DNA from: a virus
Reading direction: 5' to 3' (one strand)
Virus record (IMG/VR): IMGVR_UViG_3300002854_000001
Coordinates: 6,398 to 70,397 of that record
DNA length: 64,000 nucleotides
Shown: positions 5,628 to 31,796 of the stretch, one piece after another
Layout: every line of letters starts with the position of its first letter
How positions within the stretch are numbered: the stretch's first letter is position 1
The notes under the pieces: generated by a model
Told to the model about the DNA's origin: nothing
Databases searched by the model: none
The model's input: the letters and a program-made list of their open reading frames with translations, nothing else
Position numbers and translations under genes: made by a program

Positions 5628-6506
5628 TCAGATCTTGGCCGGCAGCGCGCCCAGGATCTTCAGCTTCGTCCAGTTGTTGTTGCCCTTGGACGCGAGTTCG
5701 CGGACGAAGAACAGCGTGAATGGGTCGTCCGGCAGCTTGAAGCCCGGCAGGCCCATAGCAACGCAGCGAGCCTTGTCGTTCAGCTCTTGCTGGTAGCGGC
5801 TGAAGGCCGGGATCGACGATTCGCTGAGCGTGATCTGGACCACGGTGCCCAGCGGGCCATCCTCGCCGTTCTCGCAGGCGAGCAGCGCACCGCCCACGTC
5901 GACGAAGCGGCGGCACTTCGCGTTGTCGAAGTCCTCCTCCTTTTGCAGGTACTGGACGTACTCGGCAACCGGCTTGCCTGCCCACCCCTTCAGTTCATCG
6001 CCGATGACCGAGTCGATGGTCTTGCCATCCTTCGAGTAGGCGACGAAGTCCTTGGTGGAGGCCGACTGCTCGCCGGGGGAGACCTCGAAGTGGTCGTCCC
6101 ACGAGATCATGCGGACCTGCGCCCAGCGGCCGAGGTCGGCCTTGTCGCCGCTCGATTCGATGATCGTGCCGTTGTTGCCCTTGAAGACGCGGTAGTTGCC
6201 GAATGCGAAGTCGCTGGCGCCCTTCATCGCCTCGACCTCCTTCTGGAACTCCTTGGCGCGCTTCGCGGCGTCGTTCATCGCAGCGACCGTACCGGTCGTT
6301 GCTTTCACGAGCCCCGTTGCAGCGGGCGCCACGGGAGCGTCGGCGGGCGCTGCTGCTGCGGGTGCCGCTGCGACCGCGGAGGGGGCGGCTGCCGAATCGG
6401 CGGTGCCGGCCGGGGACTCGACCACTGCGGTGTCGCCGCCGGTGTCTGCCGAGTCGACGGCGTTGGTGTTGGGTTCTTGTTCGAAGGTGGGCTTTCTCAG
6501 TGCCAT
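5628..6506 (-). CDS. Hypothetical replication-module protein, possibly ssDNA-binding
   Basis: Phage-like codon use, AAGGA RBS, Ala-rich disordered N-terminus; function inferred from position only. Confidence 0.55.
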   Translation of the reverse strand: MALRKPTFEQEPNTNAVDSADTGGDTAVVESPAGTADSAAAPSAVAAAPAAAAPADAPVAPAATGLVKATTGTVAAMNDAAKRAKEFQKEVEAMKGASDFAFGNYRVFKGNNGTIIESSGDKADLGRWAQVRMISWDDHFEVSPGEQSASTKDFVAYSKDGKTIDSVIGDELKGWAGKPVAEYVQYLQKEEDFDNAKCRRFVDVGGALLACENGEDGPLGTVVQITLSESSIPAFSRYQQELNDKARCVAMGLPGFKLPDDPFTLFFVRELASKGNNNWTKLKILGALPAKI

Positions 6507-22924: not shown

Positions 22925-24316
22925 ATGACGGCCGAAATCTCGATCGGATCCGATCGACTCGAGCGTTCGAAATTCTTGAATGCCCTTGAGGAAAATATTC
23001 GTACGTTGGCTGACGTTCCGTCCGAATTTTTAGCGACCCCACGCGCGATTTCGGTTGATGCCAAGTGGGGCAATGGAAAAACTTGGGTCGCCAAGGCCTT
23101 GGTAGCAAGAGCGCAAGGACAGGGAGCGCATGTCGTTTATATCGACGCGTTTCGCCATGACCACCACGACGATGCTTACGCAGTAATTGCATCGGCAGTT
23201 TTCGATGTTTTGCGTCCAAAAGGAGAGCAAAAGCGAAAATTCTTGTCGGCCGCTGGTGCGGTCTTAAAAAATACCGCTTCAGTCGCAGCTAAAGCTGCCA
23301 TATCGGCTGGAGCTGGGATGATCGGGGTAGCCAACGGGTCCGAGGCGATAGCTAAAATTCTACAAGATGGTGTTGAAAAGGGGGTGGAGGGATTCAGCGA
23401 GGAAGCGGTCGAGTCGCTTTTCAGGAAATACTCAAAAACCGAAGAGGTGCAACGGCAATTTATGAATTCGTTGAGCGAGATCACGAGTGGCTTGCAAGCC
23501 CCGCTTGTGGTCGTAGTTGATGAGTTAGACCGATGCCGTCCGTCCTTTGCTCTCGAGGTTCTGGAAAGAATAAAACACATTTTCGATGCTGAAAACACAG
23601 TGTTTGTGTTGTTCTGGAATTCGACCTCGATTCACGAATCGATACGCCACACATACGGAGCCAAAACGGATGCTGAGCAGTATCTATCCAAGTTCATCGC
23701 ATTCAATGTTCCCTTGGAACTGCCAGTTTTGTCGAAGCGCGTAAAGCGTCGAAGCATACGTTTTCAGGGATTTATTGCCGCGATTGTGAAGGATGTATTT
23801 CCTGCTGAAGGTGATCATTTTGGCTTCATTCAAGCTATGGCAGAGGGCTGCGAGGCTCTTGATCCCAGTCTTCGTCAAATTCAAATAGCGCTCCAGATTG
23901 CCAATCGCATCCATGCCTATAAGAAAGAGTGGTTTGAAGTAACCACATATCTTTGCCTGCTGAAGGCAATCGACGACGGAAGATTTTCTCGAGTTTGTAG
24001 GTTGGAAGATCTTCAGTGTGGAATTGAGGCAAATCAATTCACCGATCGGCTCGGAGTTGATCTTGCGAAAGGCGTGGAATTGCATACGGTCCACGCGCTG
24101 TGCGAATACGTTTCGCGAAGCAAGCGGTATTCTGCGCTGGAAACTGGGACTGAAAGACCAACGATTCACGAGCAGGCTGTACTTGAAATTGTTGATAGCG
24201 GTCGCGCAGTCAGTTATTTCAGAGACTTTGCAGCCGATATGTTTCAAGGTCTGATTTCGAAAGAGCACTCGGGTGCGCTAGCAAATCGCAAACCGGCATC
24301 TACTTCTGGAGCGTGA
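22925..24316 (+). CDS. KAP-family P-loop NTPase (accessory, low GC, counter-oriented)
   Basis: ISVDAKWGNGKT Walker A, YIDAF, VVVVDELDRCRP Walker B, LERIKHIF, YLSKFI; visibly AT-richer. Confidence 0.88.
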   Translation: MTAEISIGSDRLERSKFLNALEENIRTLADVPSEFLATPRAISVDAKWGNGKTWVAKALVARAQGQGAHVVYIDAFRHDHHDDAYAVIASAVFDVLRPKGEQKRKFLSAAGAVLKNTASVAAKAAISAGAGMIGVANGSEAIAKILQDGVEKGVEGFSEEAVESLFRKYSKTEEVQRQFMNSLSEITSGLQAPLVVVVDELDRCRPSFALEVLERIKHIFDAENTVFVLFWNSTSIHESIRHTYGAKTDAEQYLSKFIAFNVPLELPVLSKRVKRRSIRFQGFIAAIVKDVFPAEGDHFGFIQAMAEGCEALDPSLRQIQIALQIANRIHAYKKEWFEVTTYLCLLKAIDDGRFSRVCRLEDLQCGIEANQFTDRLGVDLAKGVELHTVHALCEYVSRSKRYSALETGTERPTIHEQAVLEIVDSGRAVSYFRDFAADMFQGLISKEHSGALANRKPASTSGA

Positions 24317-26469: not shown

Positions 26470-26930
26470 CTGCTTTGCGCACAAGCCAATGTCTGCTTCG
26501 GGCCCGAAGCTGACCTAGCGGAGGCCGGCCGCGAGAACCGCGACCAGCCTGGAATTCGCGCCGGCCCCGAGTTCTGGGAGGCCGGCTGTACCTGATGCCA
26601 CAGGCTTGTGCGTCATTTCTGGCGTCGTCCCTGACCAGACACATCGGGCAGGCGACAGGATCTCAGGGTAAGGCGGTCATCTAACCTCCGGTTGGGTATG
26701 CCGGGCTGCACCAGGTTCGTCGTAGGCGCTCAGTCACGGCGGGGCCTCCAGCGCGGGAGGGTTGATCGGGGCGTCACAGACCGGTGGACCCGACAACGGC
26801 GAGGGCAGCCTCATCTGCGGAGGCCGGCACGTTGCCGTTGTCGGGGCCGGCACTTGCGTGACAGCAATCGGGGTGGTCGCCGAGCGGCGATACTCGGTTC
26901 ACTGGCAACCGCTCTTGCGAAGGAAAAACT

Positions 26931-28833: not shown

Positions 28834-29076
28834 TCAGAACGCCGATCGAGTTTCAATTCGGTACCGATTCGCATCGGCGTTGTCGGGGGCATGGCGCGCG
28901 ATCCACTTCGCCGCCACCACCATGGCCATCGGCATCGCCGCTGCGCGCCGACGCAAGGCATCGAGCCTGGCGCAGGCACGGGTCAGGGCGCCGAACGGGG
29001 CCTGGCCGCGGCCGACTGCGCGGCTCACGTCGGCGACGTCGTCCTCGGCCATGGCAATGGCCCTGTCAATGTCCAT
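28834..29076 (-). CDS. Hypothetical protein
   Basis: GAGGAG RBS before ATG 29076. Confidence 0.55.
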   Translation of the reverse strand: MDIDRAIAMAEDDVADVSRAVGRGQAPFGALTRACARLDALRRRAAAMPMAMVVAAKWIARHAPDNADANRYRIETRSAF

Positions 29077-29131
29077 GTCGCGCTCCTCGCCCTCGACGTT
29101 GTCGAGGACCAGCCCTTCGACGTTGTCGGGG

Positions 29132-29599
29132 TCACAGCGAGCCGCGCGCGATCGAGTCGAGCAGGGCCTCGCGGGTGTATCGGACCGTGCCGGCGGCACT
29201 GGTGAGCTTGTAGACAGTGGTCGACGTCCCATTGCGCCGGTCACTGCCTTGATGTGGGCTCGGGCCGCGAAGCTCGAGCTTGTACGTGCACCCGCCGATC
29301 GACAGCAGGCCCACCTTCAGCGCCTTGTCGAGGAACGCGCCTCGATCCCTGGCCTGGTCGTAGTCGGCGGGGCAGTGCCACGCCCCGTCATCGTTGATGC
29401 CATGGTCGTCGCCCTTGGCCTCGCGCAGCAGCCCCACGCGAGCGGCCAAGTAGCGACGACGTTCCTCTCCTGACAGTCGCTCGAGCTGATGCAAGACCCT
29501 GCGGTCAGCCGAGACCCAAACGCGGCGTGAGACGTCGAATTCCTCCCAGCGTGACGCCACATCGGCGACGCCCGCATCGTTTTGGGGTGGAGTTGCCAT
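29132..29599 (-). CDS. Hypothetical protein
   Basis: AGGAGG RBS before ATG 29599. Confidence 0.6.
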   Translation of the reverse strand: MATPPQNDAGVADVASRWEEFDVSRRVWVSADRRVLHQLERLSGEERRRYLAARVGLLREAKGDDHGINDDGAWHCPADYDQARDRGAFLDKALKVGLLSIGGCTYKLELRGPSPHQGSDRRNGTSTTVYKLTSAAGTVRYTREALLDSIARGSL

Positions 29600-29774
29600 C
29601 GACCCTCCTGTTCTCACGAAACCGCGTCGGTCGACCACCTCAAAGCCACTGCGCGGGCCCCCGTTGGGGTTCGCGACCTTGGCCTTGCCGGTGGCGGTCA
29701 GTAATCGGGGCATCTTCATGGCACGGCCATCTCAGGTGATCCCGGCGCCGGTCAGCGCCAGGGTTCAATCGCTC

Positions 29775-29794
29775 GGCTGTCTTGCAAGACAGCC
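29775..29794. promoter_or_regulatory. Perfect 20-bp palindrome (operator-like, copy 1)
   Basis: GGCTGTCTTGCAAGACAGCC. Confidence 0.6.
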
Positions 29795-29803
29795 CCGTTT
29801 TGC

Positions 29804-30574
29804 TTACTCGCCGTCGACGAGGTCGATCGAGGGCGCGTCCAGCATGAGGATCGCGAGCGCGGTCAGGTCGTTGGTCCCGAAAATGCGCTTGGCCTCCTCT
29901 GCGATCGTGCGCAGGGTCTCGAGCTCGGCGGCGTCCTGCGCTCGGGCATCGGCCAGGATCTGCGCGTCCTCGTCGGTCGTGCTGTCCGGGGTGGCGACGT
30001 CGTGCTCGGCTTCCTGCTCGAAACGCTCGGCGATGGCTTGAATCGCGACGCCGAACTGTTCGCGCCACTTCCCGACAGCGTTCTCGGCCACGCCGAGGAA
30101 CATGCATGCGGTCGTGAGCCGAGCGACGGCCTCGACGTTTTTCTGCGCGTCGAGTCGGCCGTCGACAAAGCAGGCCTCGGCAAGGGCCGAGAACGCGGCA
30201 TCGCCGCTTTCCTTGGCTTCGGCGACGCTGGCCCAATGGGGCAGGGTAGAAGCGTGGCCGTAGGCCGCTGCCATCTTCGCGATGGCGCCGCGCACGGTGG
30301 AGAGATTAGGCACGCGGCCGCCAGCGGCCCCGATAACGTCCTTGACGGGAGCCGCGACGGCCTCGATCGCCTCCTTGGAGACGACGCGCAGGACGGCGGA
30401 GGTCACGCTGCCCTTGATTGCATCGGCCGTGCCGGCGAGACGCTGGAGCGTGGCGCTTGCGTTGGCGGCGACAGCCGCGATGGTCGTGAGCGATGCTTCT
30501 GCAAGCATCGTCTTTGTGTCTGCGATGGTCTTTTGCGAGGGGGCGACAACCGCCGGGGTCTTTGCTGCTGACAT
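29804..30574 (-). CDS. First gene of the leftward early arm, Ala-rich hypothetical protein
   Basis: AAAGGA RBS before ATG 30574; 256 aa. Confidence 0.7.
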   Translation of the reverse strand: MSAAKTPAVVAPSQKTIADTKTMLAEASLTTIAAVAANASATLQRLAGTADAIKGSVTSAVLRVVSKEAIEAVAAPVKDVIGAAGGRVPNLSTVRGAIAKMAAAYGHASTLPHWASVAEAKESGDAAFSALAEACFVDGRLDAQKNVEAVARLTTACMFLGVAENAVGKWREQFGVAIQAIAERFEQEAEHDVATPDSTTDEDAQILADARAQDAAELETLRTIAEEAKRIFGTNDLTALAILMLDAPSIDLVDGE

Positions 30575-30594
30575 GGCGTCTTTCCTTTGCTGGG

Positions 30595-30612
30595 GCTGTC
30601 TTGCAAGACAGC
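30595..30612. promoter_or_regulatory. Perfect 18-bp palindrome (operator-like, copy 2)
   Basis: GCTGTCTTGCAAGACAGC, identical core to copy 1. Confidence 0.6.
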
Positions 30613-30762
30613 GGCGTGTGCGATTTGCACCAGGCAAAGCTCCGCCCTTGAGCCATGACAATGGCTTGATGCGCGGGGCCGCTACCGCGCATGGGTCTAT
30701 GCGGGCTGCCTGCGGCGCCCATGTCCTGCCGGGCCGCCTGGGAGAGTGCAATCACTCATCCG

Positions 30763-30838
30763 TTAGACATAGTTTAGCACGCATTAGACAGAAAAGCGCG
30801 GCCTCATTGTCGTCTAACGTAAATATTTTGCCGTCTAA
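30763..30838. promoter_or_regulatory. Symmetric operator array in the divergent AT-rich control region
   Basis: TTAGAC-N15-TTAGAC-N22-GTCTAA-N15-GTCTAA. Confidence 0.6.
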
Positions 30839-30852
30839 TTTTAATAAATCCG

Positions 30853-30881
30853 TTGACGGGTACACATTTCTGTGATAGACA
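30853..30881 (+). promoter_or_regulatory. Sigma70-like promoter for the repressor gene
   Basis: TTGACG-N17-TAGACA. Confidence 0.55.
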
Positions 30882-30962
30882 TCAGTGGCGCTGGCTCCAG
30901 GGCCATTTGACACGGAAAAAATAGTTGCAAACTTTTGTCCAATGCATGCGAATTTATGTATC

Positions 30963-31796
30963 ATGACGCGCATGAGCACATTGGACTTGACTCCCTACAT
31001 TGACGCTGTCCTAGAGCGTGGCGAGACAGTAAACAGCCAAGCCGAAGCGGCCAGCGCGCGAGCCCTTGAACTCGGGGGAACGCGCATCGACGCGACGCAA
31101 CTTCGGCGTCTGATTCATCGCGACCCTCGGTATGCCAAGGCAGTCGAAGCCGGTCTCGTCAAGCAGAAGCCGCGGCTCAATCCTGATCAACTGCGCACGG
31201 CCCCGCACGTGCTGGCAGTGGTGCAGGAAGGCCTGTCCCTAACTGACGCGGCGGTGAAATTCGGGATGTCTGAGGCAACCGTGAGCAACCACGTTCGCAA
31301 AGCCTTTCCGTCTCGAGCTCAGCGCCGAGGCCCGCTGGCGGGTGCTGAACAGGCGACGACGAGCGAGACCTCCAACGTTTCCCCCGCCCAGCCTCAAATG
31401 ACGCTCCTGCCGCTCATTTCCTGGGTCCGCGCCGGTGACTGGGACGTGGCCAACGATTACCTGCAGCCTGGCGACGCCGAAGGCTGGTATTACTGCCCGC
31501 GGCCGACCAGCCAAAGCTCCTACGTACTCAAGGTTCGCGGCGACAGCATGACCGCGCCGAGCGGCGCAAAGCGCAGCTACCCCGAGGGCAGCTTGATCTT
31601 TGTTGATCCAGAGAAGAGGGCGCCAGTCAACGGCGATCGCATCATCGCCAAGCTCGAGGGCAGTGATGAGGTCACCTTCAAGGTCTACAAGAACGAGGAT
31701 GGCCGGCAGTGGCTGATGCCCTTGAACCCGCTGCACGAACCGATTCGCGACTCGTTCAAGGTCATTGGCACCGTTATTGGCATGTGGATGGACTGA
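30963..31796 (+). CDS. cI: CI/LexA-like repressor (HTH plus S24 autopeptidase); start 30963 or 30972
   Basis: LSLTDAAVKFGMSEATVSNHVR HTH; LPLISWVRAG, LKVRGDSM (Ser), EVTFKVY (Lys), LMPLNP, VIGTV. Confidence 0.88.
   Translation: MTRMSTLDLTPYIDAVLERGETVNSQAEAASARALELGGTRIDATQLRRLIHRDPRYAKAVEAGLVKQKPRLNPDQLRTAPHVLAVVQEGLSLTDAAVKFGMSEATVSNHVRKAFPSRAQRRGPLAGAEQATTSETSNVSPAQPQMTLLPLISWVRAGDWDVANDYLQPGDAEGWYYCPRPTSQSSYVLKVRGDSMTAPSGAKRSYPEGSLIFVDPEKRAPVNGDRIIAKLEGSDEVTFKVYKNEDGRQWLMPLNPLHEPIRDSFKVIGTVIGMWMD

Follow-up and report, generated by a model that had tools for sequence, protein, structure and literature searches.

We suggest that an intergenic region and the gene beside it in a 64,000-nucleotide (nt) stretch of viral DNA (positions 6,398 to 70,397 of IMG/VR record IMGVR_UViG_3300002854_000001; hereafter the window) form the immunity switch of a temperate-type siphophage. 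In this switch, a CI-like repressor whose DNA-binding head contains two helix-turn-helix (HTH) units would act on a putative operator, an array of TTRGAC hexamers laid out as two mirrored pairs of direct repeats. We put the probability of this reading at roughly 55%. It is carried by sequence features of the control region, by domain homology of the repressor, by an internal duplication within its head, and by comparative patterns among relatives.

A mirror-symmetric hexamer array in a divergent control region

The features are listed below in window coordinates. X1 is an 84-kb contig from public sequencing runs that covers 30501–31356 with 101 substitutions and 6 indels, and statements about it refer to the 40 of 98 differences listed. 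L021 and L019 are relatives of the control region, each from a provirus, and L074 is the locus of a distant stand-alone homologue in a bacterial genome. Structures were predicted with AlphaFold2 (AF2), with confidence given as the predicted local distance difference test (pLDDT).

30763–30768, + strand: site S1, TTAGAC, exact match; identical in X1
30771–30779, - strand: candidate leftward promoter P_L, extended -10 TGcTAAACT, found by eye between S1 and S2
30784–30789, + strand: site S2, TTAGAC, exact match; identical in X1
30812–30817, - strand: site S3, TTAGAC, exact match; TTGGAC in X1 through T>C at 30815
30833–30838, - strand: site S4, TTAGAC, exact match; the same T>C in X1 at 30836
30853–30881, + strand: candidate promoter P1, core TTGACGGGTAC, 17-nt spacer with TG, then TAGACA; kept in L019, L021 and L074
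30875–30880, + strand: near-site S5, ATAGAC, one mismatch, over the P1 -10
30935–30964, + strand: candidate promoter P2, TTGTCC, 18 nt, TATCAT, ending 7 nt before the ATG; sole promoter-like match of the scan; kept in L019 and L021
30937–30942, - strand: weak site S7, TTGGAC, one mismatch, over the P2 -35
30972–31796, + strand: repressor gene, 274 residues, translated from the ATG at 30972
30990–31148, + strand: HTH unit 1, residues 7–59; AF2 helices 7–16, 20–33, 41–50 and 54–59; pLDDT about 90
31182–31316, + strand: HTH unit 2, residues 71–115; AF2 helices 71–75, 78–84, 90–97 and 101–111; recognition helix SEATVSNHVRKA
31317–31409, + strand: flexible linker, residues 116–146; pLDDT below 50; length and sequence vary among homologues
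31410–31778, + strand: S24 / lambda-CI-like domain, residues 147–269; Pfam PF00717

The array lies in a divergent gap of about 400 base pairs (bp) that separates P0002, the first leftward gene (ATG at 30574), from the first gene on the rightward side, and this region is the GC minimum, at 43–51% against about 65% elsewhere. A sequence scan places TTAGAC on the + strand at S1 and S2 and its complement GTCTAA at S3 and S4, with start-to-start distances of 21 bp in both pairs, 22 bp separating the inner hexamers, and an exact dyad at 30800.5. A sequence-only reading of the window had described this four-half-site mirror layout, and its exact positions were reproduced, as was the near-site ATAGAC at S5. 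S3 and S4 are part of a 19-nt direct repeat of 79% identity at 21-bp spacing; S1 and S2 have little in common outside CgTTAGACa.

Within 76 bp, the array accounts for four of the five TTAGAC copies in the window and four of the six in the 73,558-bp record. Across the window as a whole the hexamer is no commoner than expected, with 5 copies observed against 7.49 expected and at least 5 in 83 of 100 shuffles. When the 396-bp intergenic region was simulated with a Markov-1 model, any hexamer reached at least four non-overlapping copies in 80 bp in 38 of 5000 simulations, and the same test on the AT-rich core gave 17 of 5000 runs. It is clustering, not overall frequency, that makes the TTAGAC array unusual. 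The regular spacing and the ++-- order are additional to the clustering statistic, but were noticed post hoc. Counting copies with at most one mismatch, the density is 20–26 per kb in the control regions of the window and of L021, against 3–4 per kb outside them. The fifth exact copy in the window (23525) is inside a 463-residue + strand open reading frame (22925–24316). This frame runs against its early-arm neighbours, the local DNA looks poorer in GC, and the frame resembles an inserted moron.

A CI-like repressor with a duplicated DNA-binding head

An upstream ATG at 30963 is lost in X1 through a G>A change at 30965, so the repressor more likely starts at 30972. Residues 147–269 match Peptidase_S24 (PF00717; E 5.2e-19, 68.5 bits against a cut-off of 23.3), and residues 131–270 align to lambda CI (3bdn_A residues 88–227, E 5e-22), with VRAGDW, GDSMTAP and TFKV over lambda VQAGMF, GNSMTAP and TFKK and with A154-G155, S192 and K237 in register. 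In lambda CI the aligned residues are the Ala-Gly cleavage site and the Ser/Lys dyad. Judged by its domain, cleavage site and dyad, the repressor is expected to be of the S24 / LexA-CI autocleavable type, and self-cleavage is predicted. The repressor has no Pfam match to HTH_3, HTH_31 or similar models of the XRE type, and close relatives of its C-terminal domain carry PF01381.

The sequence-only reading had placed an unusually long head of about 115 residues ahead of the linker, with two HTH-like segments in it. This is borne out, as the low-confidence linker at residues 116–146 is followed by the S24 domain, and the two segments (residues 39–50 and 90–107) coincide with the predicted helix 41–50 and with helices 90–97 and 101–111. 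Two HTH units rather than one are predicted, and the two are homologous. For residues 1–125, the AF2 model built from 19 sequences has a mean pLDDT of 84.8, a predicted template modelling score (pTM) of 0.55 and two helix triplets; with 8 sequences, block pLDDT was mostly 76–88, falling to 67 at residues 61–70. The pTM fits a flexible joining of two units in the model. Profile comparison of unit 1 with unit 2 (hhalign) gave a probability of 97.3% and E 2.5e-11, so the head is an internal duplication of one HTH unit. The recognition helices are unlike, DATQLRRLIHRD in unit 1 against SEATVSNHVRKA in unit 2.

No Pfam family matches the 115-residue head above threshold, the sub-threshold rows being sigma-r4, HTH_23, HTH_28 and psq at residues 80–118; Pfam HTH models do match homologues, in both halves of P0126, P0129 and P0144 and in the first half of P0141. 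Foldseek matches over the whole length are to bipartite heads (SETMAR 7s03, Mos1 4u7b and Tc3 1u78; E 0.13–0.33), and VIA comparisons over the whole length are weak (Z 3.8–4.0 over 82–96 residues). Each half taken alone matches DNA-binding HTH domains at Z 4.2–5.7, a range that VIA terms middling, and ESM Atlas scores of 0.83 or less are leads only. A 10-residue insert within the turn of unit 1, found only in P0001 (the window's type) and its four nearest relatives, P0004–P0007, leaves the DNA-reading competence of that unit uncertain.

Comparison with related control regions

The L021 head shares about 92% identity with P0008 and 45% with the head of the window. Its syntenic control region holds three of the six exact TTAGAC copies of an 82-kb record, with TTAGAC at 2317 and 2339 (+), ATAGAC at 2361 (-), TTGGAC at 2380 (-) and a further exact TTAGAC at 2412 over the P1 -10; the first four again run ++--, and the spacings are 22, 22 and 19. 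A strong leftward promoter, TTGTCA-17-CATAAT (10 of 12 positions), has the first of these sites in its spacer and the second directly upstream of its -35. The fourth site is 4 nt upstream of the P1 -35, and by our own count there are sites at about -42.5 of both divergent promoters.

L019, whose head (P0007 type) is 64% identical to that of the window, is without a TTAGAC array. Its syntenic sites are AAAGAC, TAAGAC and AAAGAC (+), AAGGAC (-) and AAAGAC (-), or WARGAC, and one of them is in the spacer of a leftward promoter, TTGCTA-17-CATAAT. In a MAFFT alignment, S2 falls on the leftward-promoter spacer sites of L021 (2317) and L019 (AAAGAC, 2802). The gap from S4 to the P1 -35 is 14 nt in the window and 4 nt for its counterparts in L021 (GTCCAA) and L019 (GTCCTT). 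At the S7 position, L021 has ATAGAC and L019 AAAGAC. The position of S5 holds an exact TTAGAC in L021, TTAGCC in L074 and no site in L019. The fifth near-site that the sequence-only reading had drawn over the -10 is thus real as sequence and becomes an exact hexamer in L021, but it may be simply the -10 of a conserved promoter; S7, which overlaps a -35 hexamer, is likewise a weak candidate for a site.

Motif position 2 is T in 13 of 13 sites of the window and L021, and A in the five L019 sites. Only 5 of 125 head positions are common to the window and L021 types and different in the L019 type, and two of these, S100 and N106, are in the recognition helix of unit 2, where the L019 type is S100A/N106Y. 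Homologues P0001, P0004 and P0008 have the S/N combination, and P0005, P0006 and P0007 have A/Y. Unit 1 is nearly constant while the hexamer changes, and only unit 2 varies with it. The control gene P0002 does not track the motif, since there L019 groups with L021 against the window. No second conserved sub-motif that might be a unit 1 site was seen beside the hexamers among 13 aligned sites.

Contigs from public runs extend the comparison; sequencing runs contained only small shares of the stretch, at 0.14 or less. In X1, no difference falls inside S1 or S2, S3 and S4 have both changed from GTCTAA to GTCCAA, and the indels from S2 to S3 (two deletions, two insertions) offset each other, so that every spacing is kept; 30770–30780, around P_L, is unaltered. 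In X2 and X4, the leader has 3–4 differences and the array flanks are 97–100% identical, yet 30740–30850 is replaced by 122–124 other letters, while the P1 core is exact (identical at 30852–30878 in X2 and at 30850–30874 in X4). In X2 the next 80 bases after the P1 core are replaced too, and its loose end, read in frame, gives a unit 2 resembling the A/Y type; the X4 match stops at 30874. The replaced arrays, together with the A/Y-like unit 2 of X2, indicate that the array is exchanged as a cassette with the head. That the array is an operator, as the sequence-only reading had proposed, gains from these comparisons, in which it appears to behave as an immunity-specific operator would.

Promoters and conserved islands

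The -10 of P_L aligns (MAFFT) with the CATAAT of the leftward promoters of both L021 and L019, and S1 would be located at about +1 of this proposed promoter. The P1 pattern, TTGACGGGTA-N4-TTT-N3-TG-N-TA, also stands upstream of the distant stand-alone homologue at L074. Among 401 family genomes it occurs once, directly upstream of that double-HTH homologue (reversed control 0), and the same homologue is the sole true match of two found in those genomes with profile A2; the other, L075, was a false lead, a NarL/LuxR-type response regulator. P1 is, from its tie to the double-HTH homologue, a conserved feature of this gene family. The L074 locus has repeats of its own, CCATTACA, two direct and one inverted. 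In IMG/VR the P1-core pattern gave seven matches, five of them by chance in AT-rich DNA (three of these five in coding sequence). The placement of P2 suggests a leaderless or nearly leaderless repressor mRNA.

A three-way alignment of the window, L019 and L021 shows conserved islands, namely the ribosome-binding site of the leftward gene, a hairpin, a 37-nt leader block, the P1 core, GGCTCCAG, and a block comprising P2, its -10 and the ATG. The array stretch between them is unalignable across the three. The leader block (30633–30668), in the early operon, is nearly invariant in L019, L021, X1, X2 and X4 while its surroundings vary, and within it is a small hairpin (GCCAT-GACA-ATGGC). The block may serve as an RNA signal, nut-like or otherwise; an Rfam search of 29500–31100 returned one chance-level row and none for the block. 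A 15-mer from this conserved leader had 52 matches, of which only the two known relatives were real. A perfect 18-bp palindrome, GCTGTCTTGCAAGACAGC, occurs at 30595–30612 and 29776–29793, each time shortly upstream of a leftward gene start, and L019 and L021 have another palindrome at the equivalent place, a compensatory change. This suggests a hairpin in the 5' untranslated region or a co-evolving dimer operator. A reading of CGTCTAA as the -10 of an extracytoplasmic function (ECF) sigma factor was dropped, as no matching -35 was seen by eye.

Proposed mechanism and alternatives

We propose the following scheme, in which DNA binding, the assignment of sites to units, stoichiometry and promoter activity are inferred from the patterns above. 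The C-terminal domain would dimerise and, after RecA activation, be cleaved at Ala154-Gly155 by Ser192/Lys237, which would release the switch. Paired tri-helical HTH units would replace the usual XRE-type head, and every TTRGAC would be an asymmetric site for one N-terminal head, most likely read by unit 2 through its recognition helix, in which residue 106 would sense motif position 2. S1 and S2, direct repeats two helical turns apart, would bracket the -10 of the leftward early promoter and shut P_L off. S3 and S4, their mirror image, would face the rightward repressor promoter P1, be occupied cooperatively and possibly stimulate P1, and S5, a weaker site on the P1 -10, would keep repressor synthesis in check (autoregulation). 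The mirror symmetry would then express two back-to-back promoters under mirrored control. As the inner gap varies (22 against 16 bp) and the spacing within direct pairs is steadier (21, 21, 22 and 19), the direct pairs, and not the inner inverted pair, would be the cooperative unit, the probable mode being two dimers, one per direct pair, joined in the manner of lambda CI cooperativity.

Several observations weigh against this scheme. The sites of L019 are not mirror-arranged, being three direct sites and one or two degenerate inverted ones, and the P2 spacer of L019 holds an exact TTAGAC. The inner gap is unequal, at 22 bp in the window and X1 and 16 bp in L021. The conserved core of each site is just 6 bp, S5 and S7 overlap promoter hexamers, and with TTAGCC at the P1 -10 of the distant L074 these may be promoter features. 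The leftward promoter of the window is without a -35, and the promoter scan gave no - strand promoter there. Unit 1, with its 10-residue turn insert, may be non-functional as an HTH; no Foldseek match reached E 1e-3 (the best was 0.13), and no VIA Z score was as high as 8. The covariation of head and motif comprises three loci in two classes, with the L019 motif defined post hoc from the same region, and the X1 details come from listed differences that end at 31028 and were taken as complete to there.

Binding of the array by the repressor is an assumption, and the hexamers might instead be read by another protein (a Cro-like early protein or a host protein), or be structural promoter DNA, with the repressor acting at the P1 core or at the 18-bp palindromes. 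The 11 invariant bases of that core do travel with the double-HTH gene, at four of four loci and in the one match among the 401 genomes, and the palindromes are perfect. Such a reading is nevertheless unlikely in our estimation, given that the array is swapped along with the repressor head in X2 and X4, that the adjacent P0002 does not follow the motif, and that no other HTH gene was seen adjoining the region. The AT-rich setting, the spacing of about 21 bp, the 19-nt duplicated unit around S3 and S4, and the phage's own primase, helicase and PolA would also suit replication-origin iterons or remnants of local duplication with no regulatory role. This we hold to be hardly probable at all, because the sites lie on promoter elements in two relatives, conservation extends over only 6–8 bp in each unit, different repressor types go with different motifs, and X1 keeps the hexamers while the spacers change.

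The sequence-only reading had itself offered a different stoichiometry, in which the two units of one subunit read two direct hexamers 21 bp apart and a single dimer occupies the four sites. Two HTH units per chain, site pairs two turns apart and the lower-confidence residues 60–70 as a possible hinge are what such an arrangement would need, but the recognition helices differ where the hexamers are identical, and unit 1 is nearly constant across phages with other hexamers while unit 2 alone varies. Moreover, the whole-length fold matches, weak as their scores are, are bipartite heads of the SETMAR and Tc3 kind, which contact adjacent grooves and are not known to contact sites 21 bp apart. A subunit reading two identical direct half-sites is therefore disfavoured, and we regard the one-dimer model as very improbable. 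Our preferred reading keeps one head, and most likely one unit, to each hexamer.

Phage context and an oriented 11-mer

The record is a 73,558-bp IMG/VR virus, 92% complete. Its left arm (-) encodes a dNMP kinase, MazG, an exonuclease, primase, helicase, ligase and many small open reading frames, with PolA and thymidylate synthase beyond the window, and its right arm (+) encodes terminase, portal, protease, capsid and siphovirus tail genes. No integrase was found in the 92%-complete record. The closest relatives found, G002 and G003, are complete proviruses with a tyrosine integrase in each, which marks the lineage as temperate. An IS110-family transposase gene (L018, 1460–2509) is near the right end of the record, where relatives have the integrase, and the record may be truncated or disrupted near this end.

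The early arm also carries an 11-mer, CCCCGACAACG. The record has 14 exact copies of it, every one located in the leftward early arm on its sense strand (reversed control 2 and 0). Many co-oriented asymmetric copies, as in stoperator-type sites, are thus found for the 11-mer and not for TTAGAC. A 13-mer form is CCCCGACAACG(T/G)C, and copies span 2361–29121 of the window (for example 29121–29131, 28878–28888 and 26836–26846), in coding and non-coding DNA, with none in the structural arm. G002 has 10 exact copies, 8 of them on one strand, and G003 has 15, of which 12 are on one strand; in bacterial genome G030, 21 of 33 copies are in the 57 kb just left of a double-HTH homologue. Compared by eye, the P1 core CGTTGACGGGT (30850–30863) agrees with the reverse complement of the 11-mer, CGTTGTCGGGG, at 9 of 11 positions in the same + orientation.

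The 11–13-mer is invariant across phages with differing hexamers, and a conserved 11-mer and a conserved unit 1 fit a head in which one unit would read the 13-mer. A division of labour, in which unit 2 would read the switch hexamers and unit 1 the family-wide 11–13-mer at the P1 core and along the early arm, is quite unlikely on present evidence. Were it true, this proteobacterial phage would have an SOS-cleavable CI that doubles as a stoperator-like roadblock across its early operon.

Distribution of the head

Among 1.84 billion representative proteins, an exhaustive search with the head gave 29 matches with an E of 1e-3 or lower. Their forms are S24 fusions, stand-alone proteins of about 150 residues whose tail is a predicted coiled coil, and proteins in which 3 to 11 copies of the unit were matched; P0125, P0127, P0131, P0134 and P0140 are such poly-HTH proteins, with the copies in tandem. 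The head had no match in 50,697 phage records (INPHARED), and no paper on an S24 repressor with a tandem-HTH head was found in the full-text collection searched. Among 120 listed homologues of the repressor, 8 cover at least 87% of it, and the others share the C-terminal domain, with an XRE head or no annotated head. P0009 carries a two-HTH head of only 25% identity on a nearly identical linker and C-terminal domain. This variation on a constant C-terminal domain shows the head behaving as an exchangeable specificity module.

A repressor-based search of bacterial genome contigs gave relatives of the C-terminal domain only, a single N-terminal sequence had no match against viral contigs, and a metagenome contig search gave one weak 35-residue match. 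The exact array pattern had a sole match in IMG/VR, L016, which was set aside as chance, being in coding DNA of an unrelated AT-rich phage without the repressor.

Relation to known systems and significance

Lambda CI with its OR/PRM region is like the window system in its homologous S24 C-terminal domain, with cleavage site and dyad aligned, in a repressor gene divergent from the early operon, and in several operator sites, putative in the window, about two turns apart between back-to-back promoters. The lambda PRM transcript is leaderless, and P2 of the window likewise ends 7 nt before the ATG. The two differ in that the lambda head is an XRE-type five-helix domain, whereas here a transposase- or sigma-r4-like HTH is duplicated over about 115 residues, and in that lambda operators are 17-bp pseudo-palindromes, whereas here the sites are asymmetric hexamers in ++-- order and no Cro-like gene was recognised.

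The phage P2 C repressor binds direct repeats O1 and O2 (PMC2995052) that lie two turns apart (22 bp centre to centre) and span the Pe -10, with a repeat spacing that differs among immunity types. Phage P2 and the window thus have in common non-palindromic direct repeats two helical turns apart across an early-promoter -10, a candidate one in the window. P2 C is, however, a 99-residue single-HTH dimer without an S24 domain, with one dimer per repeat; the window has a mirrored second pair, and no sequence relation of its repressor to P2 C was seen. In Cluster A mycobacteriophages, repressors of the L5 gp71 type (7tz1) have two DNA-binding domains per chain, and a monomer reads an asymmetric site (PMC9283540). 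Unit 1 matches 7tz1_A at Z 4.2 with a root-mean-square deviation (rmsd) of 2.3 over 43 residues, and the window phage likewise has an oriented asymmetric 11–13-mer along its early arm, contact with which by the repressor is hypothetical. Cluster A repressors differ in having no S24 domain and a second domain that is not a repeat of the first. The Tc1/mariner transposases (Tc3 1u78, Mos1, SETMAR 7s03), with two tri-helical HTH units and a short linker, are the sole whole-length fold matches to the head, but the scores are weak, with an rmsd of about 10 A, the sequences are unrelated, and their function is transposition, not repression.

S24 repressors, asymmetric operators and tandem HTH heads are each known; their combination and the mirrored layout are new. 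The switch proposed here would bring a new and rare DNA-reading module to the classic SOS-cleavable phage repressors, and would exemplify how asymmetric sites in a mirrored arrangement can govern a pair of divergent promoters. A shift of immunity specificity would become testable as one helix residue against one hexamer base, and compact repressor–operator pairs of this type could be orthogonal switches.

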